A stretch of 56,318 nucleotides of DNA, from the IMG/VR virus record IMGVR_UViG_3300048834_000044, positions 1 through 56,318 of that record. The stretch is one strand, 5' to 3'. This stretch comes from a virus (Duplodnaviria; Caudoviricetes). Positions 1-14,977 of the stretch are shown piece after piece; within the stretch, counting starts at the first letter, position 1, and each line of letters opens with the position of its first letter. The translations under genes and the position numbers were made by a program. The notes under the pieces are model-generated. The model ran no database searches. It saw only the letters and a program-made list of their open reading frames with translations, and was not told the origin of the DNA.

Positions 1-127
1 AACCGGGCCGCGGCAGAGAAGACCAACGGACACAAGGAGAACCGCGACACCGCGAGCGCCGCGACCGCGACCGGCCGAACCGCCAAGGAGCACAAGGGAA
101 AGCAGGCACGCGCCGAGGAACCGAAGG
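1..127. repeat. Terminal direct repeat (identical to 56192..56318): assembly overlap of a circular or circularly permuted phage genome
   Basis: The first 127 nt equal the last 127 nt; 127 is a common assembler k-mer size. Confidence 0.93.
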
Positions 128-614
128 CAGAGAAGAACAACCGCGACCGCACCGCGAGCACCACGAGCCAGAAGCAGAGCACCGCGACGACCGCGAGCCA
201 GGGGCAGAGCGCAAGCGCAGAGGCAGAGGCGCAAAAGCCCAAGGGACACAAGGGGAAGCAGGAGAGGCAAGGAGAAAGCAAGGGAGAGAAGGGAAAGCAA
301 GAGAGGCAAGAAAGCAAGAGGAGCAAGAGCACAAAGCGCAAGGGGCACAAGGGAAAGCAAGAGAGGCAAGAAGGCAAGGGAGACAAGGGGAAGCAGGCGC
401 GACCCCGCAGCACAGAGGCAGAGGCCCAAAGCGCAAGGGGCACAAGGGAAAGCGCAGGGGCAGAGAAGGCAAGGGGCACAAGGGAAAGCGCAAGGGCAGA
501 GAAAGCCAAGGGACACAAGGGAAAGCGGGGAGCGCCGAAACCCCAAGGGGCACAAGGGAAAGCGGGAGGCACGGGGGGAGGGCGGCGGACCCGACGCGAC
601 AGGGCAGGGGGGCC
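1..614 (+). repeat. T-free, purine-rich repeat tract with CACAAGG-core repeats (continues from 56156 across the junction)
   Basis: No T on the + strand from 56156 through the junction to 614. CACAAGG occurs at 31, 91, 247, 346, 441, 477, 514 and 551 (also 55132, 55892, 56183). Confidence 0.9.
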
Positions 615-738
615 TATGCCTTACGTCCCTGCCACAGCGAGCACTCCTACCGAAGCAGATAAGACACACAGCACTCCCAAGACCCGTGGTACACTGACCT
701 CGCGCGCGCGCACGGAAGCAGATAAGGGGTTCTCATGA
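1..738 (+). CDS. 3' part of a possible junction-spanning low-complexity Lys/Gly/Ala/Glu/Arg-rich ORF (55850..56191 joined to 1..738, 359 aa)
   Basis: Frame 1 is open to TGA 736-738, which overlaps the terL ATG (ATGA). GHKG/HKE and TEADK repeats are in frame. Openness of the T-free part is trivially expected. Confidence 0.35.
   Translation, partial: NRAAAEKTNGHKENRDTASAATATGRTAKEHKGKQARAEEPKAEKNNRDRTASTTSQKQSTATTASQGQSASAEAEAQKPKGHKGKQERQGESKGEKGKQERQESKRSKSTKRKGHKGKQERQEGKGDKGKQARPRSTEAEAQSARGTRESAGAEKARGTRESARAEKAKGHKGKRGAPKPQGAQGKAGGTGGGRRTRRDRAGGPMPYVPATASTPTEADKTHSTPKTRGTLTSRARTEADKGFS
687..695 (+). promoter_or_regulatory. Putative extended -10 promoter (TGGTACACT) upstream of terL
   Basis: TGnTAnnnT pattern 40 nt upstream of ATG 735; the same TGGTAnnnT pattern recurs upstream of other genes. 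Confidence 0.5.
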
Positions 739-2249
739 CGACCGACTGGATCACTGCCCTAGAGGAGAAGGTCAAGACTGGCCTTGCCTCCCATCAGAAG
801 TACGGATCCACCCTCGAACTTGCCCAGGCGATCGACCCCTCCTACGTCGTGCGCGAGCATCTGCGGCTCATCAGTGACCGGCTGACGCAGGCCGTCCACG
901 ACGTCGAGCAGGGCCAGTCCCGCTACCTGATCATCTCACTACCCCCACGGGCCGGGAAGTCCTACACCACATCGATCTACTTCCCTCTGTGGCTGCTCTC
1001 CTGCCACCCCGACTGGCCGATCATGCTCCTGTCCCACGACCCCTCCCTCGCGAGCGGCTGGGGTCGCCAGGTCCGCCGACTGGTCGAGGAAGAGGGCGCG
1101 CGTCTCGGCCTCCACCTGTCCCCGGACGCCGGAGCCGCAAAGGAGTGGGAGACGACCCAGGGCGGCTCCCTGCTCTCAAGGTCCATCCGTGAGTCGGTCA
1201 CTGGCCGGGGTGCCAAGGTCATGATCCTGGACGATCTCGTCAAGGACTTCGCCGAGGCGCACTCCCCCACGACGCGCGACTTCACCTGGGACTGGTGGCT
1301 CGCCAACTCGCGTACTCGTCTCCACCCACCGTCCCTCGTCGTCGTCATCGGCACCCGGTGGCACGAGGACGACTTCATCGGTCGGCTTCTCTCCCCTGAG
1401 TACGAAGGCAACCCGGACCAGTGGGAGGTCATCACGATCCCGGCGCTGGCCGAGGACCCTGACGCGACCGACCCCAACACTAAGCGCCCGTTCGGCGAAG
1501 ATGCCCTGGGGCGGTTCCCCGGTGAGCCGCTCCTGTCCCCGCTCGTTCCCCATGAGACCGTTCAGGACGCTCTGCTCCGCTGGGAGGACATTCGCTCGGC
1601 GGTCGGGGAGTATGCGTGGGCGGGCCTGTTCCAGCAGCGCCCCGCCCCAGCCGCAGGGTCCATCTTCCTCAACGACTGGTGGCAGTTCTACGACCCCCAG
1701 AGCATCGACGAGATCGTCTTCGACAGGAAGATCACCAGTTGGGACGCCGCGTTCAAGAGCACCAAGGACTCTGACTGGGTCGTCGGCCAGGTCTGGGGCA
1801 CGGTCGGCTCGCGCCGCTACCTGCTGCGGCAGGTCCGCAAGCGCATGTCCTTCACGGAGACTCTCGCCATGATGGACGAGGTCATCGCAACCTCCGGCGC
1901 GTACGAACACATCGTCGAGGACAAGGCGAACGGCTCGGCGATCATCGACGTCCTCCGCGAGCGCATCCCTGGCATGATCCCCATCAACCCGACCACGAGC
2001 AAGGAGGCTCGCGCCCGCGCCGTCACGCCAGAGGTCGAGGCCGGGAACGTCTACCTCCCCGCCAGCGCTCCCTGGCTGGCAGACTTCCTGGGAGAGATGG
2101 GGCAGTTCCCGCATGGCGCGCACGACGACCAGGTGGACTGCACCACCCAGGCGCTCACTCGCCTTCGGTCCCTTGGAGTCGTGACGCCCCTGATCCCCCA
2201 GGCGACCATCAACCGCTCGACCGCCACGGTCGGACGGCGGCGGGCGTGA
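735..2249 (+). CDS. terL: Terminase large subunit
   Basis: Walker A-like PPRAGKS, Walker B ILDD, GTRWHEDD, and an RNase H-like C-terminus (SWDAAFK, HDDQVD). Confidence 0.95.
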   Translation: MTTDWITALEEKVKTGLASHQKYGSTLELAQAIDPSYVVREHLRLISDRLTQAVHDVEQGQSRYLIISLPPRAGKSYTTSIYFPLWLLSCHPDWPIMLLSHDPSLASGWGRQVRRLVEEEGARLGLHLSPDAGAAKEWETTQGGSLLSRSIRESVTGRGAKVMILDDLVKDFAEAHSPTTRDFTWDWWLANSRTRLHPPSLVVVIGTRWHEDDFIGRLLSPEYEGNPDQWEVITIPALAEDPDATDPNTKRPFGEDALGRFPGEPLLSPLVPHETVQDALLRWEDIRSAVGEYAWAGLFQQRPAPAAGSIFLNDWWQFYDPQSIDEIVFDRKITSWDAAFKSTKDSDWVVGQVWGTVGSRRYLLRQVRKRMSFTETLAMMDEVIATSGAYEHIVEDKANGSAIIDVLRERIPGMIPINPTTSKEARARAVTPEVEAGNVYLPASAPWLADFLGEMGQFPHGAHDDQVDCTTQALTRLRSLGVVTPLIPQATINRSTATVGRRRA

Positions 2250-2272
2250 CGCACCGGGGGAGCCACCAGTCC

Positions 2273-2302
2273 TTGCGCGTCACCCACGTTTCAGGGTAGG
2301 AT
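2273..2302 (+). promoter_or_regulatory. Putative sigmaA-type promoter (TTGCGC-N18-TAGGAT), probably leaderless for the portal gene
   Basis: The -10 ends 6 nt before GTG 2309 and no SD is visible. Confidence 0.55.
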
Positions 2303-2308
2303 GCCCTC

Positions 2309-3847
2309 GTGGCAGGCGAGCGCAGGCGTTGGGGTCGTCGCAAGGCGTCCGCAACCCCAGTTCAGGCATGGGCTTTCAACGGCCCGACGACCGACGCTGC
2401 CCTCACGGCGGCAGCCGCCAGCGTCCAGAAGATCAAGCGCGAGACCAAGACCTCGCTCGACGAGTCGTGGCAGCCAGAAGCCTGGCAGTACTACGATCAG
2501 GTCGGCGAGTTGCGCTTCGTCAGCAACGCCTTGGCCTCCCGCATGTCGGAGGCGAAGATCGAGGTCTGGCTCGACGGGGAGCAGATCGAGGACGACGAGA
2601 TCCTCCCGCTCGTCACCCGAGCCTTGGTCCGGCGTCTCGGCCTGAACCTGTACGTCGCGGGTAGCGCCTACTGGGTCGGCATCCCCACCGAGGACAAGAG
2701 CGACATCGACTGGCAGGTCTGCTCGACGCAGGAACTCAAGGTAGCCGACAACAGGGTCACCATCGGCCAGAAGGAGTACCGGCTCGACGAGATCTACCTG
2801 GACCGCATCTGGGACCCGCACCCCGCGAACTGGCTTGCGGCTGACTCCCCGGTTCGCTCTGCCCTTCCGACGCTTCGAGAACTCGTCGGCCTCACGCAGC
2901 ACGTCTCGGCCCAGATCGACTCTCGCCTTGCGGGCGCTGGCATCCTGTGGGTGCCGAACTCGATCCTGCAGTCCGGCCAGGCTCCCGCCAGCCAGCCGTC
3001 CCCGTCGTACAGCGAGAACCCGATCCTCAACGCGATCATGACCGCGATGCTGACGCCCATCGAGGATCGGGAGTCCGCCAGCGCCGTCGTCCCGCTGCTG
3101 CTCGGTGCGCCGGACGACGCGATCGGCAAGATCCGCTACGACACCTTCAGCACTCCCTTCGACAAGGAGACCAAGAGCCTCCGCGACGAGGCAATCCGGC
3201 GGCTAGCGCTCTCCCTGGACGCTCCGCCAGAACTCCTGTCCGGCATGGGCGACGCGAACCACTGGACCGGCTGGCTCATCGCCGACGAGGTCATCCAGGC
3301 ACACGTCGTTCCGCGCCTGTCCCTGATCTGCGAGGGTCTCGGCCACTGGTACAACGCCGTCAAGGAGACTCAGAAGGACGACCGCGCCGGGGACTACGAA
3401 CTCCGCGCCGACGTCTCGCACCTGACCCAGCGCCCCAACAGGTTCGCCGACGCCAACACGCTCTACGCGGCCGGGGTCCTCTCCGACGAGGCGTACATGG
3501 AGGCCGGAGGCTTCAACGCCGAGATGGACAAGCCGGACTCGCAGGAGTCGGCGATCCGGTACGCGATCCAGGTTGCCCTTGGGAACCCTCAACTCGTGGA
3601 CAACCTGCCCGAACTGTTCGCCGCGTTCCAGGCGCTGCTCGACGGCACCCCGGAGACCGGACCCGTTGTGGCAGAGCCGGTCCCGGCCGTGCCCGACGTC
3701 GCAGCCCCGCCGCCCAAGGGCGTCCCTGCCCCCACGGAGCAAGGCGGCAACGCGCGACCCGGTGAGGCACCGATCCGCCGGGCCGTCCCCGCGCCAGAGC
3801 AGGGCGGGCCACCGGCCAAGCCGACGGGCGTGGGAGCCGGGGCATGA
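2309..3847 (+). CDS. Portal protein
   Basis: 512 aa directly after terL, with WQPEAWQYYDQVGELRF, SRLAGAGILWVP and GMGDANHW motifs typical of actinophage portals; Pro-rich tail. Confidence 0.9.
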   Translation: MAGERRRWGRRKASATPVQAWAFNGPTTDAALTAAAASVQKIKRETKTSLDESWQPEAWQYYDQVGELRFVSNALASRMSEAKIEVWLDGEQIEDDEILPLVTRALVRRLGLNLYVAGSAYWVGIPTEDKSDIDWQVCSTQELKVADNRVTIGQKEYRLDEIYLDRIWDPHPANWLAADSPVRSALPTLRELVGLTQHVSAQIDSRLAGAGILWVPNSILQSGQAPASQPSPSYSENPILNAIMTAMLTPIEDRESASAVVPLLLGAPDDAIGKIRYDTFSTPFDKETKSLRDEAIRRLALSLDAPPELLSGMGDANHWTGWLIADEVIQAHVVPRLSLICEGLGHWYNAVKETQKDDRAGDYELRADVSHLTQRPNRFADANTLYAAGVLSDEAYMEAGGFNAEMDKPDSQESAIRYAIQVALGNPQLVDNLPELFAAFQALLDGTPETGPVVAEPVPAVPDVAAPPPKGVPAPTEQGGNARPGEAPIRRAVPAPEQGGPPAKPTGVGAGA

Positions 3848-4203
3848 CGAACGACATCCGTGTCCTCGGCGCGGCCTGCGATCTCGCCGTTGTGCGCGCT
3901 TTGGAACTCATCGGGAAGCGCGTCGTCCGCGCCGAGCGCGCCAGGTATGGCACCCTCGCCCGCGCCGGGCTCACCTGGCACGAGGCGCACACCGTCTGGG
4001 CACCGGACGAGGCCGCGATCGACGCAGCGCTCTCTGGCGCATGGACAGTCCTGCCGCGCCTGGTCAACGAGCACGGCTGCTGCCGCGTGGCCGAGCCAGC
4101 CCTCCAGGCGCTACTCGATGAGTACGTTCGGGATCTCGTGACGTCCCGAGCGCCGCATCGCTACGCCGACCTGGAGGGCCGTCTCCGTGTCCTCGCCGAC
4201 TGA
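3844..4203 (+). CDS. Hypothetical head-module protein
   Basis: 119 aa; ATGA overlap with portal; phage-like codon usage. Confidence 0.75.
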   Translation: MTNDIRVLGAACDLAVVRALELIGKRVVRAERARYGTLARAGLTWHEAHTVWAPDEAAIDAALSGAWTVLPRLVNEHGCCRVAEPALQALLDEYVRDLVTSRAPHRYADLEGRLRVLAD

Positions 4204-6478
4204 GTTCGAGAGCCAGGTCTCCAAGGCGGTCAAGGGCTACCTCGGTCGCCTGATCGACGAGGTCTGGCAGGCGCTCGCAGACGGCAAGGGCTCCTTCGCC
4301 AACCCGGTCTTCTCCCTCGGCACGCTGCTCGGTTGGTACATCGCCGACGTCGCCGACCCCCTGGTCAACGAGATCGAGGCCATGTGGGACAAGGAGTTCC
4401 CGGTCAACGAGGCTCGCGCCAGGCACATCGCAGCCGTCCGCGACCGGCTCGCCACGGACATCGAGCCGGAGATCCCCATCGGGGCCTTCGACTCTGTGCG
4501 CCTGTCCCAGTCGCTCGCCGCAACGCAGGGCTGGACGCCGCAGCAGATGGCCCGTGACATCGCGGAGCGGCTGTCCTGGGAGCCGAACAAGGACTTCTGG
4601 AAGCGGCAGAAGGACGACGCCGAGGCCGAGATCGACGCGATCCTGGACCCGCTCGGCCCGCCTGGCACCCCGGCACGGACGATCGTCCACAAGTCCGACC
4701 CGCGCATCAAGGAACTGCAGGCGCTCCGTGCCGAGGCCGTCACCGCGCTTCGTGCCGACGAGAGCGTCTGGAAGGACCGCGCGCAGCGCATCGCGCGCAC
4801 GGAGTTCACGGCGATGCAGGCGGCCGGTTCCCTGGCTGCCCTTGTGGCCGAGGGCGTTACGCACAAGCGCTGGCTGTCCACCCGTGACGGCCGGACCCGG
4901 CACTCGCACGCCGAGGCCAACGGGCAGGTCGTGGACATCCTAGGAGCCTTCGACGTCGGCGGCTTCCTTATGCAGATCCCCGGCGACCCGACCGCACCGC
5001 CCGAAGAGACCGTCAACTGCCGCTGCACGATCGTCGGTGCGACCGAGGACGACTACAAGCGCTCCATGCTGACCGCCGGAGCCACGAGCAAGCAGCCCTG
5101 GGAGTACCAGGTCCGCGTGCCGAAGGGCAACGGCAAGCGCTCCGGGCGCTGGATCGACATGCCTGGTAAGGTCCTCATGGAGATGTTCAGCGAGGAAGCG
5201 CTGTCGTACTACAGCGACGAGGACGAGGACCTGCTGCTGCAGGCGATCCAGCAGGCGATCTACTGGCACCCGGAAACCGTTGGGGCAGAGCGCTTCCTGG
5301 AGCGTGCCGACGAGTACCTGGAGCAGGTCGAGCGGGACAGCGACCCCGCGATCGCCGAGGCGCGCAAGTACATCGACGACTTCATCACCGGCATGGACTG
5401 GAGCCTCTACAACCCGGCGACAGACATGGAGCAGGACGAGGACATCGGTTACGGCGACGAGGACGACTGGTACGACGACGACCCCGAGCCGAGCCAGGGG
5501 TACTCGGGCGACCCCTACGAGGAGTACTTGCGCCTGTTGCAGAACGGCGGAGTGCCGAGCAACAAGGCACTGAGCCAGGCCGTCAGCGGGATGCTGGAAG
5601 ACGATGAGATTGCTGGAGTCTCGGCAGAGGCCGCGCTCCTGTGGACCTCCGCCTTGCAGGAGGCGCTTGCGGGGACCGGCGTCACGCTTCGCCTGGACCA
5701 GTTGGAGAACGACGGTCGTGAACTCCGGCTGTCGTGGTCGCTCACGGACGACGACGGCCACGAGATCGGCACGATGAACCGCTGGGCTACGGAATACGAA
5801 GTCCACCATGACTACTTCACGCTGGAGCCGGAGTACCAGGGCAAGGGTATCGCGCAGCGGCTGAACACGGCTGCCGAGGATCTGTACCGTGCCAACGGCA
5901 TCCAGTACATCACCCTCGACGCGAACATCGACGTCGGTGGCTACGCCTGGGCGAAGCAGGGCTACACGCTCGACGTGGACAAGGGCGGCCGTGACGCCAT
6001 GAAGGACGTTCTGCGGCGGCTCGCGATGGAGATCACCATGTCCTCCAAGGTCTTTGACCTTGTCGAGGCCTTCTCGACGCACATGGTCTACCACGGTGAC
6101 TACCCTGCCAATCTCGTGTACTTCATCGAGGAGTTGCGGTCTCTCGGGGTTGAGGTAGACTTCAGCGACGGTGACGAGTTCGACTACGAGTGGCGAGCGC
6201 AGGTGCTTCTCCAGGCGTACCTTGACCACTTCGGCGAGAGGGACAGCGAGGACGCGATCTTCCGGCTGCTTGACCTGGCGGCTGATGCCTTTGGCAACAG
6301 CGAGATTCAGATGTGGGACATCGCTTCCTTCGGACAGGGTGACCCGAAGTGGGAGCGTACCGTCGAGATCACGCAGTGGGACTCGACCGGGCGGACGATG
6401 ACCCGCACCCCCAAGGTCACCTGGCCCGGCAAGGAAGCACTGCTCGGAGCCCGCTGGCCGGGACGGAAGGACCTCTGA
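4187..6478 (+). CDS. MuF-like minor head protein with shared module and C-terminal GNAT acetyltransferase-like domain
   Basis: MuF motifs RIARTE, KRWLSTRDGRTRHSH and PGDP..PPEETVNCRC. C-terminal HDYFTLEPEYQGKGIA (acetyl-CoA motif A) and GGYAWAKQGY. Confidence 0.85.
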   Translation: MSSPTEFESQVSKAVKGYLGRLIDEVWQALADGKGSFANPVFSLGTLLGWYIADVADPLVNEIEAMWDKEFPVNEARARHIAAVRDRLATDIEPEIPIGAFDSVRLSQSLAATQGWTPQQMARDIAERLSWEPNKDFWKRQKDDAEAEIDAILDPLGPPGTPARTIVHKSDPRIKELQALRAEAVTALRADESVWKDRAQRIARTEFTAMQAAGSLAALVAEGVTHKRWLSTRDGRTRHSHAEANGQVVDILGAFDVGGFLMQIPGDPTAPPEETVNCRCTIVGATEDDYKRSMLTAGATSKQPWEYQVRVPKGNGKRSGRWIDMPGKVLMEMFSEEALSYYSDEDEDLLLQAIQQAIYWHPETVGAERFLERADEYLEQVERDSDPAIAEARKYIDDFITGMDWSLYNPATDMEQDEDIGYGDEDDWYDDDPEPSQGYSGDPYEEYLRLLQNGGVPSNKALSQAVSGMLEDDEIAGVSAEAALLWTSALQEALAGTGVTLRLDQLENDGRELRLSWSLTDDDGHEIGTMNRWATEYEVHHDYFTLEPEYQGKGIAQRLNTAAEDLYRANGIQYITLDANIDVGGYAWAKQGYTLDVDKGGRDAMKDVLRRLAMEITMSSKVFDLVEAFSTHMVYHGDYPANLVYFIEELRSLGVEVDFSDGDEFDYEWRAQVLLQAYLDHFGERDSEDAIFRLLDLAADAFGNSEIQMWDIASFGQGDPKWERTVEITQWDSTGRTMTRTPKVTWPGKEALLGARWPGRKDL

Positions 6479-9400
6479 TGATGACGCCGTCGCAGGCTCT
6501 CGCTGCAGCCTACGCCGAGTGGCTGACCACGCTGTCGCCAGTCACGCCGGAGATGCCTTACGCCACCAACGATCCCAGCCAGTACGCCGAGGGCTGCGAG
6601 GTCGTGTCAGCGACCGACGAGGACCAGCGCCGTCTGTTCGAGATGCAGAAGGCGGCCTTGCTCGACCTGGAGACTGCTCTGGTCGCATCGGCTCTCGGCT
6701 GGAAGGACCAGTTGCGTATCCCGCAGGGCAACGGGAAGCGCTCGGGCCGGTGGACGTTCACGCCGTGGGCGCATCTCGACGAACTCATCAGCCTCATCGG
6801 GAACCAGCCGGAGATCGTCGTCGCGCAGGACCGGCTGAACGGCTACAACCGGAACAACTTCGATGTGCGCGATGCAGACTTCAACGCTGCCGTCGCGCAA
6901 GCCGCCAAGGACCTCGACGGCGTGGCCGGAGCCGAGGACGTCCAGCAGGCGCTCCGTGACTGGGCCGAGACCGACTGGAGCCTGTTCGCCGAGGACTCCG
7001 ACATCGGACGGTACGACGACACCATCATCACCAAGAAGCGCGGGCGCTGGCAGTGGAACGAGGCGCTGCCGCCGGAGACGCCGGTCAACCCCGCGTACGC
7101 CGACTGGACGAGCCAGCGTCTCGTTGACCGCCTTGACGAGATTGCGAACCACCACACGGCTCCCAGCCCGAAGATGCGCCGCGACCGCACCGAGATCATG
7201 CAGGAGTTGAACGACCGCAAGGCCGGTGGCGAGACGACGACCAACTGGGACTCGCGCGTCGCAGCCCTCGAACCGTACGCTGAGACAGGACCGAACTACA
7301 TCCGCTCGGTTGCCGACGAACTGAACACCGCCAAGCGGCTGAAGCGTGATGGGAGGGATGAGGAAGCAGAGCACTTCCTCAAGAACGCTGAGACAGCGCT
7401 GCAGCGAGCCAAGCCAACGCCCGCGCCGACGCCAACCCCTGATGCCCCGACGTCGATCGTCGTGATGAAGCACCCCGATGCGGTCAATCCTTCAACGGCC
7501 ACAAGGAATCCTGACGGTTCAATCACGGTCGTCCTTCCAAACGGGAGGGCAGAGACGATCTCCGGCCGGAAGGGGATGACACACGCGCTCATCCGTCGCA
7601 ACGGTGGTCCCGGCAAGCCGAACAAGTACACCCCGCCTGCCGGGGGTTACTTCATCAGTCTCGCTGGCAGCGAGGAGAAGGCGCTCAAGGAGGGACAGGT
7701 CCAGGTCTACGACCGCACGCACATCGAGGTCGTGCCGATCCTGGACCCGGCGGCATCGACACCAGAGCCGAAGCCGACACCCGACCCCGTCAAGCAGGTT
7801 CGTCAGAAGGCGTTGAGCCGCATCGTCCCTGTTGATCGAGCCCTCGCTGACCCCGATCTGACCGACGACCAGCGTGCGGCTCTTGAACTGCTCGCGCAGT
7901 CCCCGGACGGGCTGTCGGAGAGCGATCTCAGTGAGCGTCTGCACGGTGGCGACGGCACGCTCGCCAAGTTGGACGCCGTCATGAAGCCGTTGGAGGGCAA
8001 GAGTTACGTCGTTCCGCAGCGCTGGGGCGACAGCAAGACCTACCTGGCTCGACCGGCTGAGGGACCCCCGCTCACGTCTCCGCGCCCGCCGGAGATCCCG
8101 CTCGCAACCGAGGACGAGGACCGTCTTCGCGAGAAGGATCTGAAGTGGGACAAGGGCTGGCGTCCGACGATGAAGAACCCGCACGACCCCGAGGACATCA
8201 ACGGGTGGGGCGACGCAGCGTACGACAAGCCGTCTTCGGAGTACATCGCTCTCGCAGAACTGTTCCAGAGCATGCGGAATGGCAACCCGCAGGGTGCGGT
8301 TTCGATGGAGACAACGCTCCAGAAGGCTGCCGATCTGGCTCGGGCTGCTGGAGAACCGGGGATCGGCGAACTGCTCGACATCGCCAAGTGGGGCGTGGAG
8401 AACGGCGACCCGACCACCGTGCGGACGGCGTTCGAGCAGGTGCTCTGGCAGGGTCGCACGACGCCGGTCGTCGCGACGAAGGCTGACGCCAACTGGATCA
8501 GCGGATTCGGCATGGGCGCGACTTCCTATGCAAATCAAGTAAAGATCAAGCGCTTCAATGAGTGGGCGTCGTACCAGGCACAGGGCTTGGAGACCCAGGC
8601 CGACCTGCACCGGCTCCTGAAGGACATGGAGGCCAACGTTCCTACGGCCTACCCCAACGACCCGCAGATGGCCCGGCGCTTCAAGAGCATGCAGCAGAAG
8701 GACATCGAGGCCGCACTGGTCGCGAGTGAGCCGGACGCCGCGCCGACAGCGGCGATCAGCAGGGCCTACGGCATCGTGGACACGCCCGAGTGGCACGAGG
8801 CGATCAACGCCTTGGGAGACAAGATCCTCCCGGACGCCGAGTCGCCCCTCTACGAGCGCTACGGGACCGTCCCCGAGGAGCGCCGGACGCCGCAGGCTGT
8901 CATCAAGGACATCGGAAAGTTCTACTCGATCCGTGCCCTCGGCAACAACTGCGTGCTGGCCAGCAACGCCTACGAACTCCGGCGGCGCGGCATCGACGCG
9001 GAGCCCAAGCAGGCTGCCAAGGGACGCAACGCAGAGTACTCGCAGCGCCTCTGGTACCGCAACCCCGAGTTCAAGACTGTCGAGGGGCTCAAGGGGTTGC
9101 AGAAGAAGAACCGCTCGAAGACGGTCTACAAGCACGTCGCCGACCACTACCCTCCCGGCTCGCGCGGGACGATCCGCTGCGGCTGGAAGGGACGCTCCTT
9201 CGGGCACATCTGGAACTGGGAGGTCCACGAGGACGGTGAGGTCGTGTTCTACGACGCGCAGACGGGCAAGATCGTCCCGCCGGACTCGTCCTACTGGTTC
9301 GACATGGAGTGGGACGGCGTGAAGACGGCGCGGCTCGACAACCTCCGGCTGTTGGAGGACATCGAGGTTCTGATCGAGCCCTCGGTGAAGGAGATGTCGG

Positions 9401-9609
9401 CCGAGGAGCGCGTGCTGGCCGAGAAGTACGCGGAACTCCGAGAGCGCATGGGCGTCTTGGCAAGGTCCGGTCAGTACAACAGCGAGTACGAGGCGCTGGC
9501 TGCCCAGGCCGACGAGATCCGCAAGCGGCTCAAGACGATCGCGGACTCGTACGAGATCCTGCACCCCGAGGTCAACACGCTCGCCGCGCTGAAGGGAGGC
9601 AAGAAGTGA
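6478..9609 (+). CDS. Large polyvalent protein (1043 aa): shared module, winged-helix-like region, C-terminal papain-like toxin (Tox-PL / glutamine deamidase-like) domain
   Basis: ATG 6478 overlaps the MuF stop (TGATG). NNCVLASNAYELRRRG, GHIWNW and YDAQTG give a Cys-His-Asp triad; wHTH-like segment at ~7858-8052. Confidence 0.78.
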   Translation: MMTPSQALAAAYAEWLTTLSPVTPEMPYATNDPSQYAEGCEVVSATDEDQRRLFEMQKAALLDLETALVASALGWKDQLRIPQGNGKRSGRWTFTPWAHLDELISLIGNQPEIVVAQDRLNGYNRNNFDVRDADFNAAVAQAAKDLDGVAGAEDVQQALRDWAETDWSLFAEDSDIGRYDDTIITKKRGRWQWNEALPPETPVNPAYADWTSQRLVDRLDEIANHHTAPSPKMRRDRTEIMQELNDRKAGGETTTNWDSRVAALEPYAETGPNYIRSVADELNTAKRLKRDGRDEEAEHFLKNAETALQRAKPTPAPTPTPDAPTSIVVMKHPDAVNPSTATRNPDGSITVVLPNGRAETISGRKGMTHALIRRNGGPGKPNKYTPPAGGYFISLAGSEEKALKEGQVQVYDRTHIEVVPILDPAASTPEPKPTPDPVKQVRQKALSRIVPVDRALADPDLTDDQRAALELLAQSPDGLSESDLSERLHGGDGTLAKLDAVMKPLEGKSYVVPQRWGDSKTYLARPAEGPPLTSPRPPEIPLATEDEDRLREKDLKWDKGWRPTMKNPHDPEDINGWGDAAYDKPSSEYIALAELFQSMRNGNPQGAVSMETTLQKAADLARAAGEPGIGELLDIAKWGVENGDPTTVRTAFEQVLWQGRTTPVVATKADANWISGFGMGATSYANQVKIKRFNEWASYQAQGLETQADLHRLLKDMEANVPTAYPNDPQMARRFKSMQQKDIEAALVASEPDAAPTAAISRAYGIVDTPEWHEAINALGDKILPDAESPLYERYGTVPEERRTPQAVIKDIGKFYSIRALGNNCVLASNAYELRRRGIDAEPKQAAKGRNAEYSQRLWYRNPEFKTVEGLKGLQKKNRSKTVYKHVADHYPPGSRGTIRCGWKGRSFGHIWNWEVHEDGEVVFYDAQTGKIVPPDSSYWFDMEWDGVKTARLDNLRLLEDIEVLIEPSVKEMSAEERVLAEKYAELRERMGVLARSGQYNSEYEALAAQADEIRKRLKTIADSYEILHPEVNTLAALKGGKK

Positions 9610-9896
9610 TCGACTACATGGAGGCCCGGAAGCGGGCTGAGGAGTTCTACGGCGGCCCCGTCACCGACGACCCGATCGTCAACCCTGGCCAGAAGATCTG
9701 GCTGTTCATCCCGGTCGCCGAGGCATCCGCAGACGGCGAGAGCCTGATCGCCGTCTCCGAGGACTCCGTGTGGCAGATCGGTTCCTCGCCGGACGCGCTC
9801 GAACTGATCGGCGCTGAGATGCCGCTCGACCCCGAGACCGAGGACGAAATCGCCGGTCTCGTTGCTAGCCTTTCTGAGACCGAGGGGGTAGGATGA
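9606..9896 (+). CDS. Putative immunity protein (YrhB/Imm35-like) of the papain-like toxin
   Basis: GTGA-coupled 96-aa acidic ORF right after the toxin domain. Its IDYMEARKRAE..WLF..G..LIAV..VWQIGS pattern resembles YrhB/Imm35. Confidence 0.55.
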   Translation: MIDYMEARKRAEEFYGGPVTDDPIVNPGQKIWLFIPVAEASADGESLIAVSEDSVWQIGSSPDALELIGAEMPLDPETEDEIAGLVASLSETEGVG

Positions 9897-12800
9897 CCTC
9901 CGTGGACGCAACCTGGTGGGGGCCGATCGGCCTCGAAGGTCAGAAGACCGGCGACGGTCGTACGATCGAACTGAACGCGCTCACCTGGGGCGAGTTCCCG
10001 CTCCCGCTGCGGTGGGCTCCCGAGGACTACGGTGCCCACGACGGGGCCAAGGTGGTCGGTCGCATCCTCGGCATCAGCCGGGACAAGGACGGTCGGCTCA
10101 TCGGCTTCGGCGACTTCGACATGGACAGCGAGCACGGTCGCGAGGCTCAGCGCCACGTCACGAAGGGCCTGACGCCCGGAGTCTCGATGGACCTCGACGA
10201 CATCCTGCTCACCGAGAGCGAGGACGGCCAGGACCTCACCATCACCCAGGGCCGCGTCCGAGGCGCGACTCTCGTTGCGATCCCTGCGTTCGCGGACGCC
10301 CGGCTGTCCAGCATCGACGTCTCGACGCTGGCCGACGAGCCGACCGACCCCACCCAGGAGACGCCGGAAGCCGATGTGGCTGAGGCAGTCTCACTGGCCG
10401 TCGCCGACAGCGCGGAGACGGCGACCTTCAACTGGGTCGAGGACGCGGGCGGTCTCCCCAAGTACGTCAAGCGGATCGCCACGCACCTGAAGGCGAAGGG
10501 CATGGACGAGAGCCACGCGATCGCCGTGGCTGTCAACGTGGTCAAGAAGATGTGCGCCTCCGGCGACGTCAACTTCCCCGGTGCCCAGCAGGTCAACGCC
10601 AAGAGCCGCGCCGAGGCGTGCGCCGCCGTGGCCGAGTGGGAGGCGAAGAAGGCCAAGGCGAAGGTGAGCGGCGCGGACACCGAGCCGTTCAGCCTCACGG
10701 CTGCTGCGTACCCGCGCTCGTTCTTCGACAACCCCGGCCTGTCCGCGCCAACGCCGCTGACGGTGGACGACGACGGGCACGTCTACGGCCACATCGCCCT
10801 GTGGGGCACCTGCCACATCGGCTTCAAGGGCTGCACGCAGCCCCCCAACAGCCCCAGCAACTACGCGTACTTCAACACGCACGAGGTCACAACCGACGAC
10901 GGCCGCCGCGTCGCCGTCGGTCGCCTCACGATGAACACTCTCCATGCAGGACAGCGCCTTTCGGCGAACGACACCGTGTACCACTACGAGCACACGGGCG
11001 CTGTTGGCGCGTACGTCCGCGCTGGCGAGGACCAGCACGGCATCTGGGTTTCCGGTGTGGCGCATCCGAAGGCGGACATCGACGCCCTCCGGGCCGCCCC
11101 GGTCTCTGGCGACTGGCGGCGCATCGGCTCCGGCCTCGAACTCGTCGGGCTGCTCTCTGTCAACGTGCCGGGCTTCCCGGTGCCTCGTCCGCAAGCCCTT
11201 GTGGCGTCTGGAGAAGTCATGAGCCTGGTCGCAGGTGGGATGAACACGACGGAGCGTCGCACGACGCTCGCGATCGAGCGCGTCAAGGCGATGGTCTTCG
11301 GCTACAACAAGGACCAGTGGCGCGTCCCGAAGGGCAACGGGGAGATCAGCGGTCGCTGGGTGGACATGCCCGACGTCAGCCTGACGGCGCTGATGGACAC
11401 GCTGATGGACCTCGCCGACCGTGGCGTGATCGGCGAGGACCGCGCGCCCGACATCGGCGAGGCGATGGACAAGGCGCAGGAGGCCAGCAGCCGCATCACC
11501 GCTGCGATCGAGGCGGCTGACGGTGACGGCGCGCGAGCGGCTGCCGAGGAGGCCAGCGAGCACCTGAGTCTCGTTGAGGCGCAACTGCAGGACCTCGCCG
11601 ACAACGGCGACGGCCTGAGCGAGGACGAGATGACGAACCTGGGTGAGCGGCTCACCGAGGCTCGCGACTCCGTGGATCTCGTCAAGGACAGCGACCTCTC
11701 GCTCCTGGGCGACGAGGGCATCGGCGGCGACGACCCGACCGGCGACATCGGTGCCGACGAGCCCGAGATCGGCGACGTGGACACCCCGGCACCCGGCGAC
11801 GACGACTCCGGCAAGGAGGCGATCTGGAAGGGCTTCGAGGACTCGTACCTCCAGAACGCTGACCCCGAGGAGGACGTCAACCCCGACACCCTGCGGGAGC
11901 AGTACGACGCCGACATCGCGGCGGGCAGTACGCCCGAGGAAGCGATCGCCAACGTCGCAAAGACCGTGCAGGACAACAGGAACCCCGGAACGCCGGATGC
12001 CCGAGAGGCGGCTCGGGAGGCGATCTCTCAGGACTCCGAGGGTCCGATCGACATCGAGAACGTCTCGGGCGACATCATCGACTTCGCCAAGGACGCCGAC
12101 CTCTCCCCAGCACAGGTTCTCGATGAGGCCCTTGACCTCTGGATCGGCGGCGAGTCGTCCGGCTGGAAGGACCTGGACCGCGTCTTCGACATGGCGGAGG
12201 CCAACGAGTTGTCTCCCCAGGAGTTGAAGGACGCCTTGGGCCTCAGCGACTCTCCGGCGACCCCCGACGTCCCGGATGCCGACGTCCCCGACGTGCCCAA
12301 GGGCTCCATCGACTTCGAGGGTGTCAACCCGGACGGCACCATCCCCGAGAGCGACAACGAGAACGACTGGCCGGAGGCGGAAGTCCTTCACACCCTTCCT
12401 GTCGGCTCCGTGGTCTCCGACGACTCCGGCTACGAGTTCACCAAGACCGCCTTGGGGGAGTGGGAGGTCTCGAAGGAGGGACCGTCTGCGGCTGAAGACG
12501 ATCTCCCTCTTGGCACCCCGATCACGGAGCAGGACGTCCTGGCGGGTGGCGACTCGGTGCTGGCTGTCAAGAGCGTTGGCCCCGATCAGCGCTCGGCCGA
12601 CGCGCCCAACTCCGATGCGCCAGAAGCACCTTCGAACGGCGACATCCTTCCGCTGGGGCATGGCGAGCCCGCCCCGGACGACGACGGGCCGAAGGGGGGA
12701 GAGCGGCCTGCAACTCCGCAGGAGAAGGAGGCTGCTGCCAGCGCGTCCAAGGCCGTGAAGGCGCTGGATCGCTTGGTGGACAAGATCGACATGAGCCGGG

Positions 12801-13075
12801 ACGAGCGCTTCACGCTCTACCGCATCATCGGTGCCGTGGGCGGCCTGGCGGACGGTCTCAAGTACGACTTCCCGGTCGAGCGTGACACCGAGATGATCCA
12901 GGAAGCGTGGGCAGCCATGCAGAGTGTGGACATCCAGGACCCCAAGGTACAGAAGGCGTTTGACAAGGTCATGGACGAGGCCAGGAACATGCTGTCGTTG
13001 TACGACATCGAACTGGCCGACCCGCGCGCTCTCACCGAGCCGCCCTTCCACGGCGAGATCGTCATCACGCTCTGA
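9893..13075 (+). CDS. Capsid maturation protease with helical insert, second protease-like domain, shared module and acidic C-terminal extension
   Basis: EGQKTGDGR..ATLVAIPAF N-domain and FFDNPGLSAPTPLTV..GHIALWGTCH..SGDWR..LELVGLLSVNVPGFP domain; located just before the capsid gene. Confidence 0.82.
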   Translation: MTSVDATWWGPIGLEGQKTGDGRTIELNALTWGEFPLPLRWAPEDYGAHDGAKVVGRILGISRDKDGRLIGFGDFDMDSEHGREAQRHVTKGLTPGVSMDLDDILLTESEDGQDLTITQGRVRGATLVAIPAFADARLSSIDVSTLADEPTDPTQETPEADVAEAVSLAVADSAETATFNWVEDAGGLPKYVKRIATHLKAKGMDESHAIAVAVNVVKKMCASGDVNFPGAQQVNAKSRAEACAAVAEWEAKKAKAKVSGADTEPFSLTAAAYPRSFFDNPGLSAPTPLTVDDDGHVYGHIALWGTCHIGFKGCTQPPNSPSNYAYFNTHEVTTDDGRRVAVGRLTMNTLHAGQRLSANDTVYHYEHTGAVGAYVRAGEDQHGIWVSGVAHPKADIDALRAAPVSGDWRRIGSGLELVGLLSVNVPGFPVPRPQALVASGEVMSLVAGGMNTTERRTTLAIERVKAMVFGYNKDQWRVPKGNGEISGRWVDMPDVSLTALMDTLMDLADRGVIGEDRAPDIGEAMDKAQEASSRITAAIEAADGDGARAAAEEASEHLSLVEAQLQDLADNGDGLSEDEMTNLGERLTEARDSVDLVKDSDLSLLGDEGIGGDDPTGDIGADEPEIGDVDTPAPGDDDSGKEAIWKGFEDSYLQNADPEEDVNPDTLREQYDADIAAGSTPEEAIANVAKTVQDNRNPGTPDAREAAREAISQDSEGPIDIENVSGDIIDFAKDADLSPAQVLDEALDLWIGGESSGWKDLDRVFDMAEANELSPQELKDALGLSDSPATPDVPDADVPDVPKGSIDFEGVNPDGTIPESDNENDWPEAEVLHTLPVGSVVSDDSGYEFTKTALGEWEVSKEGPSAAEDDLPLGTPITEQDVLAGGDSVLAVKSVGPDQRSADAPNSDAPEAPSNGDILPLGHGEPAPDDDGPKGGERPATPQEKEAAASASKAVKALDRLVDKIDMSRDERFTLYRIIGAVGGLADGLKYDFPVERDTEMIQEAWAAMQSVDIQDPKVQKAFDKVMDEARNMLSLYDIELADPRALTEPPFHGEIVITL

Positions 13076-13092
13076 CGCACCGACGCAGATCC

Positions 13093-13121
13093 TTGCGTTT
13101 CCAACAACTTCATGATACGAT
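13093..13121 (+). promoter_or_regulatory. Putative capsid promoter TTGCGT-N17-(TGA)TACGAT
   Basis: Canonical spacing with an extended -10; intergenic; SD AAGGAGG at 13165-13171. Confidence 0.65.
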
Positions 13122-13178
13122 CGCAGTGAACGCCGCTGGCGCATGGGCCGGGCAGACCACTTCCAAGGAGGAAGTCTG

Positions 13179-14915
13179 ATGTCCGGCAAGAAGAATCAGA
13201 TCGTGATCCCCGAGGACCTGGCGACGCTCAGCGACCAGGACCTCACCGCGCTGCACGACCAGGCCGTCGAGGTCTTCAAGACCCTCATCCCTTCCGAGGG
13301 CGAGGCTCCGACCGACGAGGGCCTGCAGGCGCTCAACGTCCTCGCCGAGGGCATCGAGGCGCTGAAGGCCGAGGTCTCCACCCGCGAGGCCGCTGCCCTG
13401 GCGCGCAAGGAGTCCGTGGCGGCCCTGGCGCAGCGCGTCATGCCGACCCCGGCCGACACCGGCGAGGCCGAGGCCGAGCCGGACCCCGAGGACCCCGAGG
13501 AGGACAAGGAGAAGGAGGACGACGCGGCCGAGGCCGTCGTCGCTGCCGCCTCCCGTCCCGTCCGGCGTCGTCGCCGCCCCCCGATCAACATCGACGTCGC
13601 CAGCCTGGCGAAGAAGGACGTGACCCCCGTGTCCGAGACCCAGGAGCCCAAGGCTCCCAAGACCATCGGCTTCGCGGCGCAGGGAGCCACCGGCTTCGAC
13701 GTCGGCAAGCCGCTCACCACGCTCGACATGGCCAAGGCGATCAACAGCCGTCTCGCGGGCTTCAACCCGGCGGCCTACTCGCTCGCGGCTCAGCGCGGCG
13801 TCCGGCAGTCGGAGCGCTTCGCGATCGCGCGCCTGGTCCGCGAGTTCCCCGAGGACATGATCGTCCAGTCCGAGGACCCGCGCACCGCGATCGACGCGGC
13901 GATCGACCAGAGCCGTCTCCAGGGCCAGTCTCTCGTCGCCTCCGGCGGCTGGTGCAGCCCGTCCGAGACGCTCTACGACCTGATCGACATCTCCGAGGCC
14001 GCGAACCTGCTCTCGCTGCCGGAGATCCAGGTCAACCGTGGCGGCGTCCGTCACGCGCTCGGGCCGGACTACGCGTCCATCTTCACCGACACCGGCTTCT
14101 GCTACACCGAGGCCGAGGACATCGCGGGCGACTACGACGGCGAGGGTGCGGGCTCGAAGCCCTGCTTCCACGTCGAGTGCTTCGACTTCACCGACGTCCG
14201 GCTCGGCTACTGCGGCGTGTGCGTCACGGCGGGCATGCTGCAGCAGCGCGGCTACCCCGAGGCGATCGAGGTCACCATCGGCGCGGTTCTCAACGCGCAC
14301 ATGCACCGCGTGTCGGCGTTGGTCATCAACGACGTCGTCGCCGGTTCGACCGCGATCACCTGGGGAGGCACCCCGCAGGCCGGTGCGACCGCGCCGCTCC
14401 TGACCGCGATCGACATGCAGGCCATGCACCTGCGGGCGTCGAACCGCATGCGGGACGACGCGGTCCTGGAGGTCGTGCTCCCGACGTGGAGCAAGGCCGT
14501 CATCCGCGCCGACCTCGCGCGCCGTCTCGGCGTGGACCTGCTGTCGGTCTCCGACGCTCGCATCGCGGGCTTCTTCGCCGACCGCAACGTCAACGTCCAG
14601 TACGTCGTGGACTGGCAGGACATCGCGGCCACGGCCAAGGCGTCGTTCGTCGCCCCGCCGACCTCGGTCAAGTTCCTGCTGTACCCGGCGGGCACCTGGG
14701 TCAAGGGCGTCACGGACTCGATCACGCTGGAGAACATCTACGACTCCACGCTGCTTGGGACCAACGACTACACCGCGCTGTTCACCGAGGACCCGTACCT
14801 CGTCCTCAAGCGCATCGCCGACTCGCGCGTCGTGACCGTCGCCGTCGAGGCGACCGGCAACACGCACATCGGTTCGGAGATCGCGGCGAACGGCACCTAC
14901 ACCCCCGCCGCCTGA
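13179..14915 (+). CDS. Major capsid (hexamer-type) protein with N-terminal scaffold/delta-like region
   Basis: Strong SD before ATG 13179. A helical acidic N-terminus precedes SLVASGGWCSPSETLYD and LSLPEIQVNRGGV, as in cluster-B-like actinophage capsids; very strong codon bias. Confidence 0.88.
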   Translation: MSGKKNQIVIPEDLATLSDQDLTALHDQAVEVFKTLIPSEGEAPTDEGLQALNVLAEGIEALKAEVSTREAAALARKESVAALAQRVMPTPADTGEAEAEPDPEDPEEDKEKEDDAAEAVVAAASRPVRRRRRPPINIDVASLAKKDVTPVSETQEPKAPKTIGFAAQGATGFDVGKPLTTLDMAKAINSRLAGFNPAAYSLAAQRGVRQSERFAIARLVREFPEDMIVQSEDPRTAIDAAIDQSRLQGQSLVASGGWCSPSETLYDLIDISEAANLLSLPEIQVNRGGVRHALGPDYASIFTDTGFCYTEAEDIAGDYDGEGAGSKPCFHVECFDFTDVRLGYCGVCVTAGMLQQRGYPEAIEVTIGAVLNAHMHRVSALVINDVVAGSTAITWGGTPQAGATAPLLTAIDMQAMHLRASNRMRDDAVLEVVLPTWSKAVIRADLARRLGVDLLSVSDARIAGFFADRNVNVQYVVDWQDIAATAKASFVAPPTSVKFLLYPAGTWVKGVTDSITLENIYDSTLLGTNDYTALFTEDPYLVLKRIADSRVVTVAVEATGNTHIGSEIAANGTYTPAA

Positions 14916-14923
14916 CCCACACC

Positions 14924-14960
14924 GGCTGGGGTGGCGGCTGACTCAGTCGCCACCCCAGCC
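14924..14960 (+). terminator. Strong hairpin after the major capsid gene (attenuator or terminator, no U-tract)
   Basis: GGCTGGGGTGGCGGCTG-act-CAGTCGCCACCCCAGCC forms a 17-bp stem with one G-U pair. Confidence 0.7.
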
Positions 14961-14977
14961 CGAACCGGAAGGTAGAC

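Follow-up and report, generated by a model that had tools for sequence, protein, structure and literature searches.

A 650-base tract without T between the terminase genes of a high-GC phage, possibly the body of a young repeat-built gene

By large terminase (TerL), the nearest named relatives of the phage analysed here are the Microbacterium phages of Mementomorivirus (MementoMori, Kozie, and MO526), which are of siphovirus type and similar size. Amino-acid identity of TerL is 52-53% for Cressida, Kozie, Cinna, and Terij, and the terL genes of these four, as well as those of MementoMori and MO526, are 67-71% identical at the nucleotide level over most of the gene. In the Mementomorivirus phages, the annotated terS abuts terL and the tract described below is absent; terS of MementoMori (gp3) has no detectable relation to the terS of our phage (BLASTP E 5.1). 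Repeated boxes for the small terminase, to which the motif found here beside terS can be likened, are present in SPP1 (pacL/pacR), P1 (the pac hexamers), and lambda (the R sites of cosB). Such pac-type arrays consist of a few boxes over tens to ~200 bp, and we know of none described as base-exclusive. To our knowledge, no T-free tract of the present kind is in print, and no description of a comparable one was found in the literature on T- or U-less tracts, terminase disorder, and stop-free or strand-asymmetric phage genomes.

The window, that is, the whole analysed stretch of 56,318 nucleotides, contains a circular phage assembly of 56,191 bases, the terminal 127 bases repeating the initial 127. 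Its two longest runs without T (614 bases, and 163 bases of which 127 belong to the overlap) join across the junction, after removal of the overlap, into 36 + 614 = 650 unique consecutive bases, as the first-pass annotation had claimed. At the genome T frequency of 0.163, the probability of no T in 650 bases is ~5e-51. The annotation was also right that all six frames are stop-free, because the tract has no T, which stops need on the coding strand, and its complement has no A. The tract consists of A (0.338), C (0.258), and G (0.403), with 74% purine, in a genome of 66% GC; the copy number of its repeats is that given by the assembly alone. The next-longest T-free runs are all nearby (121 bases at 55981-56101, 95 at 55092-55186, and 78 at 55875-55952), except for another of 95 bases at 13442, within a gene of the capsid region.

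We compared the junction of terS and terL with 88 related loci, comprising 80 loci from an alignment scan (TerL at most 65% identical) and eight metagenome loci (TerL at most 71% identical). Closer relatives were found neither in viral contigs scanned with TerL as the only protein nor in genome contigs. The same terS family occurs in five of the 88 (L085, L087, L005, L073, and L090). In L085 and L087, whose TerL proteins are 68% and 71% identical, the stop of the terS homologue overlaps the terL start as GTGA. No T-free run longer than 113 bases was found near terS-terL in any of the 88 loci, where isolated CACAAGG words are about as frequent as expected by chance, and the proposed check for equivalent skewed tracts in related phages therefore gave none. 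The separation of terS from terL, which had been called unusual, is so by comparison with these two closest relatives, but not with L090 (TerL 58% identical), where the same junction is filled by ~1.9 kb of foreign small ORFs. The inserted DNA of L090 is of the usual coding kind, with T and free of repeats, and the longest T-free run of that locus (82 bases) lies elsewhere in it; the junction tolerates insertions. By these comparisons, the tract lies in an insertion of ~1.18 kb (55747..734) between terS and terL.

The operon that holds the tract is on the + strand, where terminator-like sites are lacking (Table 1). Its genes form, by sequence, an overlap chain, terS-GTGA-ORF36-GTGA-ORF359-ATGA-terL. 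ORF36 is almost A-free over 55747-55852 and its peptide reaches a Kyte-Doolittle 19-residue maximum of 2.19, with a weak coding signal (66 of 500 shuffles score equally well). ORF359 is the frame open from GTG 55850 to TGA 738, an openness that is weak by itself, as every frame is open within the T-free tract; GTG 55850 is our choice of start, the ORF listing beginning the same frame at TTG 55574. The 5' part of ORF359 includes module A, which is hydrophilic and has only two T among its 226 bases, as well as another hydrophobic segment (56101-56155), and near its 3' end the second copy of GAAGCAGATAAG (715) forms part of the terL ribosome-binding region. An identical TerS protein was found on eight contigs and an identical TerL on three, the longest of 56,415 bases. 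Two other gene models were rejected. A terS fused to a charged tail is not seen among the best 150 of its 3265 protein homologues, which measure 107-250 aa and include none with a long tail and some with basic N-terminal extensions. An N-terminal extension of TerS beginning at ATG 55090 shows no sign of coding, and the gene callers chose ATG 55186; in the terS frame, the leader likewise lacks a coding signal (196 of 500 shuffles score equally).

Table 1. Coordinates of the T-free tract, its repeats, and the flanking genes.
Feature	Coordinates	Strand	Remarks
T-free tract, start	56156..56318	+	56156-56191 unique; 56192-56318 = assembly overlap with 1-127
T-free tract, main body	1..614	+	no T; bases 1-127 recur as 56192-56318
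T-free terS leader	55092..55186	+	one motif copy (55129-55144); terS ribosome-binding site GGAAGGAGAA at 55170
terS-like gene, 186 aa	55186..55746	+	phrog_645, E 2e-14; homologues directly before terL in L085, L087
36-codon ORF (ORF36), small hydrophobic TM-like peptide	55743..55853	+	GTG start overlaps terS stop (GTGA)
359-codon ORF (ORF359), 5' part	55850..56318	+	candidate GTG start at 55850 overlaps ORF36 stop (GTGA)
359-codon ORF (ORF359), 3' part	1..738	+	stop TGA (736-738) overlaps terL ATG (ATGA)
Higher-order tandem repeat, period 95	213..489	+	2.9 copies, 77% matches; nested 9-, 17-, 30-nt repeats nearby
37-nt unit tandem array	428..564	+	3.7 copies, 83% matches; holds last four motif copies
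T-containing ORF tail	615..738	+	two copies of GAAGCAGATAAG (652, 715; direct-repeat family D8)
terL, large terminase, 504 aa	735..2249	+	Pfam Terminase_6N/6C; phrog_38, E 8e-100

The count of 11 CACAAGG copies given in the first-pass annotation was reproduced (all within 55132..551), as were the positions of the final four (441, 477, 514, and 551) and their spacings of 36, 37, and 37. Extended to GGRCACAAGGRRAASC with at most one mismatch, the motif yields 14 matches that represent 12 distinct copies, all on the + strand and all inside 55129..563; the 16-20-nt motif was not found elsewhere in the 56-kb genome, and shuffles give 0. Six successive spacings (291, 39, 60, 156, 99, and 36) are multiples of three, followed by 59, 36, 37, and 37, and the last four copies fall in three reading frames with the core perfectly kept. 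Within the 20-nt core, five of seven third codon positions vary, compared to three of 14 first and second positions. Tandem repeats with periods of 95, 37, 30, 17, and 9 were detected in the tract by TRF, together with direct-repeat families; modules A and B have a common core of ~100 nt, and the terS leader (55100-55186) aligns to the tract end (495-566) with 46 of 59 columns identical. Tandem duplications nested within one another make up the tract, and its final units are paralogous to the terS leader.

In the ORF359 frame, GC3 is 0.83-0.97 from ~55830 to ~270. The codon-usage score of this frame over 56156-234 is 0.27 bits per codon, compared to -1.43 and -0.79 in the other two frames and to 0.31 and 0.43 for terL and terS. 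No shuffle among 500 reached the ORF-frame score in each of the segments 55850-56100, 56156-234, and 235-434. In contrast, the last 180 bases (435-614) are coding-like in no frame, with 500 of 500 shuffles scoring equally, and 615-738 are weakly coding-like. Lysine is encoded by 29 AAG and three AAA codons, whereas the codon choice over 235-614 is atypical of the genome (GGA/GGG over GGC, AGG for Arg, CAA for Gln, and GCA for Ala). Codon usage, GC3, spacings, and third-position variation all favour the ORF359 frame up to ~434. Of the four options that the first-pass annotation gave without choosing among them, the one in which the region encodes a disordered protein is thus the best supported for ~470 of the 650 bases, where the overlap chain agrees with it as well, but not for 435-614. 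The concentration of variation at third positions and the spacings in threes point to a constraint that would act on the peptide. The predicted ORF359 protein has a net positive charge, is rich in Lys, Arg, Glu, Gly, Ala, and Gln, and has a repeated [K/N]-G-H-K-[G/E]-[K/N] peptide. An identical 245-residue partial translation is present in the ESM Atlas, which shows no more than that the sequence is listed there as a protein, probably from the same record or sample. A collagen-like protein was rejected, as none of the three + frames has continuous Gly-X-Y and only short GAQGKA-like pieces occur.

None of the 291 hydrophilic codons ends in T, compared to 684 of 7587 codons (9.0%) in 22 genes of the phage; directly after 614, T ends 10 of 41 codons. 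Given the protein sequence and the genome codon usage, the probability of no T is 10^-16.6. Across nine paralogous pairs, which give 322 aligned positions with some overlap, the 46 differences comprise 27 A/G, 12 C/G, and 7 A/C changes and none that involves T, in copies that are 9-18% diverged. Since these diverged copies lack a single change to T, the constraint appears to be ongoing. In a sequence with this much purine, only ~65% of the possible T introductions would make a stop, or a start of the NTG type, in one frame or another. Nothing at the protein level accounts for the lack of T at synonymous sites, which counts against the explanation preferred below. T is excluded from the tract; that it is actively kept out, and why, we infer.

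The explanation that we prefer, with middling confidence, is that the tract forms the main part, hydrophilic and of low complexity, of a young repeat-built gene for a highly charged, disordered protein, within a lineage-specific insertion chained to terS and terL. Counting against it are the 180 terminal bases that look coding in no frame, the atypical codons of 235-614, the lack of homologues of the product, and the motif copy in the terS leader. Ribosomes starting at terS would run, or re-start, through ORF36 and ORF359 to terL, and the tract would thus be translated and coupled to terL. ORF359 would have grown as purine-rich units, with paralogues in the terS leader and ribosome-binding region, were duplicated in tandem, one duplication nested in another. 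The lack of T would then have three causes: the codons of hydrophilic residues need no T at positions 1 and 2; the seed units were probably already without T and were then amplified; and T may be kept out, since new T's often make stops or starts in some frame. Avoidance of stops and starts would matter where repeat indels move the sequence from one frame to another; the terminal 180 bases have already left the frame and are still open. In a high-GC phage, a run of this kind can stem from the structure of the genetic code and repeat amplification. Even so, the barring of T at synonymous sites and in diverged copies and the abrupt change to T-rich third positions at 615 are unusual.

Unlikely, in our estimate, is the further proposal that the absence of T is itself selected, the tract acting as a frameshift-proof translated bridge with a U-free mRNA devoid of starts, stops, promoter -10 elements, and terminators. 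Ribosomes and RNA polymerase coming from terS would then always reach terL across a 1.2-kb, indel-prone insertion in any frame, and actinobacterial RNase E would not meet in this RNA the cleavage context with U that it favours. What selection acts on, in maintaining the exclusion of a whole base, would be gene expression and not the protein. If selection does keep all frames free of stops and starts, the tract would exemplify a simple, so far undescribed way to render a repeat-prone insertion harmless to a coupled operon and would give a view of a new gene growing from leader sequence.

A role of the RNA alone, as a U-free, unstructured terS-terL mRNA without terminators, starts, or stops and with few RNase E sites of the kind favoured in actinobacteria, that protects or tunes terL expression, is improbable. 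Consistent with it are the barring of T at synonymous sites and among paralogous copies, the equally T-free terS leader (95 bases) paralogous to the tract end, and the location in an operon without a terminator-like site on the + strand. The predicted fold is no better than that of shuffles (-0.27 kcal/mol per base, MFE z-score 0.16), suggesting a largely open RNA. According to PMC10641625, mycobacterial RNase E prefers RN|CNU, with U three bases past the cut; a U-free tract lacks the U of this preference, which may not be that of the host, but the cytidines named there as the main determinant of cleavage account for 26% of the bases in the tract. The relatives, moreover, manage without such a spacer. 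Binding to the anti-Shine-Dalgarno sequence is not above that expected from composition: windows at or below -6 kcal/mol number 150 versus 172 +/- 18 in shuffles, and those at or below -8 kcal/mol number 49 versus 78 +/- 14, ordinary genes having 33-47 Shine-Dalgarno-like windows. A CsrA-type or Shine-Dalgarno sponge was rejected as a specific signal on this lack of enrichment. In Rfam, nothing was found at E <= 1 in 1-900, and 54300-56318 gave only two sub-threshold chance matches. Long-range pairing of A-free segments with the tract was also rejected, the best exact inverted matches being of 15, 13, and 11 bases, which are too few.

A packaging signal, with the 20-nt motif, in its 12 copies of one orientation to both sides of terS, providing assembly sites for TerS (a pac region) and the T-free composition as a by-product of multiplying a purine-rich site, is likewise doubtful. 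The motif's restriction to 55129..563, always on the + strand, agrees with this proposal, as does its distribution, one copy (55129) being upstream of terS and the remainder downstream. Copies on either side of terS resemble the flanking arrangement of pacL and pacR in SPP1, and pac sites of headful phages are usually in or beside terS. The perfect core of the last four copies despite their differing frames, and the copy in the terS leader where a coding signal is absent, also suggest a role at the nucleic-acid level. However, core variation tracks third codon positions, the earlier spacings are multiples of three, the closest relatives sharing the terS family have neither motif nor tract, and a binding array leaves the avoidance of T across 650 bases, spacers included, unexplained. 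If the motif is the site of the small terminase, it would define how packaging is signalled in a phage group so far uncharacterised.

We regard as quite unlikely that the tract is a neutral, recently expanded minisatellite, a leader fragment enlarged by slippage or unequal recombination that is functionless and tolerated as unable to stop translation. The nested repeats, of which several have periods not divisible by three (95, 37, and 17), the lack of the tract in all 88 relatives examined, and the last 180 bases that are not coding-like would fit such an origin. Protein homologues were also not found: searches for the ORF359 product in Pfam (all three + frames), in PHROGs, and by features in the ESM Atlas gave none. 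Among 5.8 billion proteins, the tract translation had no match of 134-429 residues and the N-terminal part of ORF359 had none of 274-2000 residues, both weak blanks in which the query's own sequence was also unscored. Against neutrality, the first ~470 bases have genome-like codon usage and GC3, which need time or selection, and copies diverged by 9-18% have zero changes to T; besides, phage genomes seldom retain 1.2 kb of ballast.

An assembly or sequencing artefact is very improbable, for although the contig ends fall within the tract and a short-read assembler can collapse or expand 37- and 95-base repeats, circularity is established across the tract by the overlap of 127 bases, the internal coding-like order runs on into both flanks, recurrence of the identical TerS and TerL implies that the same or a near-identical phage recurs, and known artefacts such as poly-G do not yield structured A/C/G repeats. 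Hardly credible, too, is a non-B DNA or R-loop element (G-quadruplex, triplex, or R-loop-primed replication or recombination), an option of the first-pass annotation that found little support: the + strand is G-rich and 74% purine, with two non-overlapping G4 candidates (437-476 and 547-578; 11 on the whole + strand and six on the - strand) and a C-free polypurine run of 72 bases nearby (54806-54877), but these candidates require loops of 5-12 bases, 26% C breaks any polypurine mirror repeat, and neither T exclusion nor coding-like periodicity is accounted for. The idea of a thymidine-hypermodifying phage with the tract as an unmodified island was rejected, as searches for T-modification genes in PHROGs (42 proteins) and Pfam (30) gave only a dCMP deaminase and a DUF4406/deoxyribosyltransferase-like protein.

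Runs of hundreds of bases that lack a single base are easily mistaken for exotic nucleic-acid elements, and the tests used here tell the coding from the non-coding parts of such runs. Nine other T-free runs of 48-113 nt from the window and its relatives each translate in one frame into an acidic or proline/alanine-rich linker. A search with a motif-pair pattern matched 19 loci in viral contigs and 45 in genome contigs, all unrelated and serving as baseline only, such as low-GC giant-virus or Bacillales repeat genes. The collagen-like repeat ORFs of two Bacillales genomes contain T-free runs of 403 nt (L121) and 341 nt (L124), and a KHKEK-repeat ORF of Streptomyces (L145) has an A-free run of 147 nt. 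Like our tract, the Bacillales genes are formed by tandem duplication and miss a base as the encoded residues need no T, and the Streptomyces ORF uses the same CACAAGG(A/G)GAAG words. For primate genomes, a preprint (bioRxiv 10.64898/2026.02.27.708503) describes regions free of stop codons as reservoirs of proto-genes, and it has in common with our reading the idea that an ORF can arise or be extended from skewed, repeat-rich sequence of this kind. In contrast to the Bacillales and Streptomyces repeat genes, the tract extends over 650 bases in a phage of 66% GC, has no Gly-X-Y pattern, and lies inside a terminase operon; its 3' third is out of frame, and T is barred even among its diverged copies.

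The first 127 bases of the window recur as its last 127 and IMG/VR classes the record under direct terminal repeats, so we take the assembly to be circular, with a length of 56,191 bases (CheckV completeness, 100%). The longest T-free runs of the window, 1..614 and 56156..56318, join into one run of 650 bases once the 127-base overlap is removed, which upholds the uninterrupted stretch without T described in the first-pass annotation; the CACAAGG positions listed there and their 36/37/37-nt spacing were both correct on recount. The tract consists of A (0.34), C (0.26), and G (0.40), with 74% purine, and at a genomic T frequency of 0.163 the probability of a 650-base T-free run is ~5e-51.

The genome is of the siphovirus type, with structural genes on the + strand from 735 to ~33,000, and its host is probably an actinobacterium, to judge by a GC content of 66% and by its relatives among Microbacterium phages. 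The terS-like protein belongs to a family with 3265 small proteins, phrog_645, labeled 'RNase E' (nucleotide metabolism) in PHROGs. This label looks like a mis-annotation of a small terminase, because of the gene order and size in relatives. By tblastn, the family lies upstream of terL in 5 of the 88 related loci. In the two closest relatives, L087 (TerL 71% identical) and L085 (68%), the stop of the terS homologue and the terL start share GTGA, whereas here the two genes lie 1,180 bases apart (55747..734), so that this segment is an insertion relative to both loci. The related locus L090 (TerL 58% identical) has ~1.9 kb (4096-5989) between the terS homologue and terL, with at least four ordinary small ORFs, one of them HTH-like, and in loci L005 and L073 the gaps are roughly 160-400 bases, as extrapolated from tblastn matches. 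We take the terS-terL junction to be a recurrent insertion site where insertions are tolerated. The check for skewed tracts in relatives, proposed with the initial observation, revealed no single-base-free run longer than 113 bases among 80 IMG/VR and 8 metagenome loci, the closest relative compared having 71% TerL identity. The named relatives, Microbacterium phages of Mementomorivirus, have no tract, and their terminase genes are adjacent.

Two side observations concern the structural genes. Two successive ORFs that overlap each other both match the portal profile phrog_776, the first at profile positions 18-497 and the second at 523-618; the portal gene is either split or equipped with a separate C-terminal piece. 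A long ORF in the head-morphogenesis block has no PHROG match; near its C-terminus (residues 866-974) it matches the Pfam family 'papain fold toxin 1, glutamine deamidase' (E 1.8e-7), and its product could be a virion-borne ejected enzyme.

Positions of the genes and of the parts of the 359-codon frame
Feature	Position	Strand	Description
terL	735-2249	+	large terminase
Portal ORF, first	2309-3847	+	phrog_776 match
Portal ORF, second	3844-4203	+	phrog_776 match
ORF in head-morphogenesis block	6349-9609	+	1086 residues
Replication block	33,375-54,340	-	family A DNA polymerase, gp2.5-like SSB, exonuclease, SNF2 helicase, D5-type primase, dCMP deaminase
terS-like gene	55186-55746	+	186 residues; phrog_645
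359-codon frame, part 1	from 55850	+	short hydrophobic start
359-codon frame, part 2	55875-56100	+	hydrophilic module A, only two T's
359-codon frame, part 3	56101-56155	+	second hydrophobic segment
359-codon frame, part 4	56156..614 across junction	+	T-free tract
359-codon frame, part 5	615-738	+	T-containing tail

The stop of terS overlaps the GTG start of a 36-codon ORF encoding a hydrophobic peptide (Kyte-Doolittle maximum, 2.19), and the stop of this ORF in turn overlaps GTG 55850, the candidate start of the 359-codon frame. The long frame is open as far as TGA 736-738, which overlaps the terL ATG at 735. Its modules A and B share a ~100-base core, duplicated in frame 291 bases apart. Nested tandem repeats were found by TRF, with period 95 at 213-489, period 37 at 428-564, and also 30, 17, and 9, the copy number being that of one short-read assembly. 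The 16-nt motif GGRCACAAGGRRAASC (conserved core, 20 nt) has 12 distinct copies from 55129 to 563, all on the + strand, and none elsewhere in the genome or in shuffles. The terS leader (55100-55186) lies inside a 95-base T-free run with the terS ribosome-binding site at its end, and it is identical to the tract end (495-566) in 46 of 59 columns; by this alignment and the direct-repeat families D3 and D4, the tract units and the leader are paralogous. Just 5' of the tract, further T-free runs (121, 95, and 78 bases) alternate with A-free runs at 55747-55852 (106 bases) and 56101-56171 (71 bases). Both A-free runs code for hydrophobic, TM-like segments and mirror the T-free rule, as hydrophobic residues need no A; they also have exact inverted matches of 10-15 bases with the tract (55812-55826/171-185; 56123-56133/221-231). 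There are two copies of the ribosome-binding region of terL (GAAGCAGATAAG), at 652 and at 715, so duplication reached the terL 5' flank too.

The primase-terS spacer at 54786-54880 is 87% purine on the + strand and contains a C-free polypurine run of 72 bases (54806-54877). G-free polypyrimidine runs lie upstream of terS in L085 (1155-1207, 53 bases), also within the primase-terS spacer, and in L087 (3-73, 71 bases), whose contig starts inside the run. A purine/pyrimidine tract upstream of terS thus seems to be conserved across the group, and it is possibly part of an origin or divergent promoter region. Just upstream of the primase start, 5 of the 21 genome copies of GTTGCC fall within 144 bases (54625-54780), in GGTTGCCGTT-type direct repeats that look like iterons.

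The explanation we favor, to which we give an even chance, is that the tract belongs to an ORF built from repeats, which would be translated as a bridge from terS to terL and kept T-free by selection. From ~55830 to ~270, the long frame has a GC3 of 0.83-0.97, resembling that of real genes of this phage. A codon-usage log-likelihood test was restricted to T-free codons, and each segment was compared with 500 shuffles; the long frame scored 0.27 bits per codon over 56156-234, compared to 0.31 for terL, and -0.76 over 235-434, compared to -1.82 and -2.05 for the other frames; no shuffle reached its scores in these two segments or in 55850-56100. Six motif spacings in a row are divisible by three, the variable positions within the motif core are mostly third codon positions, and 29 of the 32 Lys codons are AAG. 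Codon choice is atypical beyond ~235, no frame is favored over 435-614 (500/500 shuffles score equally well), and the four 36/37-nt units at the tract end are spread over three frames. In our reading, the first ~470 tract bases are under protein-level constraint now or were so recently, and the last 180 would be a younger out-of-frame expansion, still read through because no stop can occur there. No homologue of the 359-codon product was found in Pfam or PHROGs, nor in a 5.8-billion-protein collection, in which the query itself did not score, indicating low power on such biased sequence. A 245-residue partial translation is present letter for letter as a protein record in the ESM Atlas, an entry that probably stems from the same record or sample.

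The residues whose codons need no T in the first two positions are precisely those that are hydrophilic, and in all nine other translated T-free runs of the window and relatives (48-113 bases) one frame is an acidic or Pro/Ala-rich linker. Amplification of T-free seed units contributes to the absence of T as well, without fully explaining it. Given the encoded residues and phage codon usage, the probability of finding no T is 10^-16.6. T-ending codons number 0/291 in the hydrophilic parts, non-repetitive module A included, compared to 684/7587 (9.0%) in 22 genes of the phage and 10/41 directly 3' of base 614 (615-738). Nine paralogous, partly overlapping pairs (6-18% diverged) differ by 27 A/G, 12 C/G, and 7 A/C changes and none with T, whereas by our estimate ~nine C/T differences would be expected from 27 purine transitions by strand symmetry. 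The probability, the codon counts, and the paralogue differences thus argue that T is kept out or never produced at protein-neutral sites. By our arithmetic from tract composition, ~39% of new T's would be followed by AA, AG, or GA and form a stop triplet in some frame, ~40% would be followed by G and form an NTG start triplet behind Shine-Dalgarno-like words, and ~65% would do one or the other; because the repeats keep moving the frame, all three frames would matter. We infer stop/start selection as the cause, but it would not cover every T, and an additional constraint at the level of RNA or DNA may exist. Searches of the phage proteins with PHROGs and Pfam detected no thymidine-modification genes, and no thymidylate-synthase-like gene was detected among the phage proteins searched. 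The only nucleotide-metabolism genes found are those for the dCMP deaminase and a DUF4406/nucleoside 2-deoxyribosyltransferase-like protein (45907-46365 and 49316-50005, - strand).

A putative small-terminase binding array, one of the options raised initially, has a small chance of being correct; as a pac array it failed the conservation test, since neither motif nor tract is kept among related phages. An equally small chance is given to a U-free RNA element, for example an element with few RN|CNU sites, the context preferred by mycobacterial RNase E (PMC10641625). RNA structure of the tract was not above shuffles (z = 0.16), the tract region matched no Rfam family, and anti-Shine-Dalgarno binding equals the composition-based expectation. 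A neutral minisatellite is improbable. The tract has only two G4 candidates, both long-loop, and a non-B DNA or R-loop element is very improbable, as is an artefact.

In its mode and its single-base-free signature, the tract resembles coding regions in which hydrophilic residues are encoded by tandem repeats. Among the motif-pattern loci, T does not occur over 403 and 341 bases, respectively, in two collagen-like repeat ORFs of Bacillales; the tract itself is not collagen-like, as it lacks Gly-X-Y periodicity. A Streptomyces KHKEK-repeat ORF has an A-free run of 147 bases on the opposite strand. The literature searched contained no description of a phage packaging operon with a base-exclusive tract. 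This tract is unusual for how long it is, for lying between terminase genes that are coupled, for being derived from the terS leader, and for the apparently active exclusion of T.
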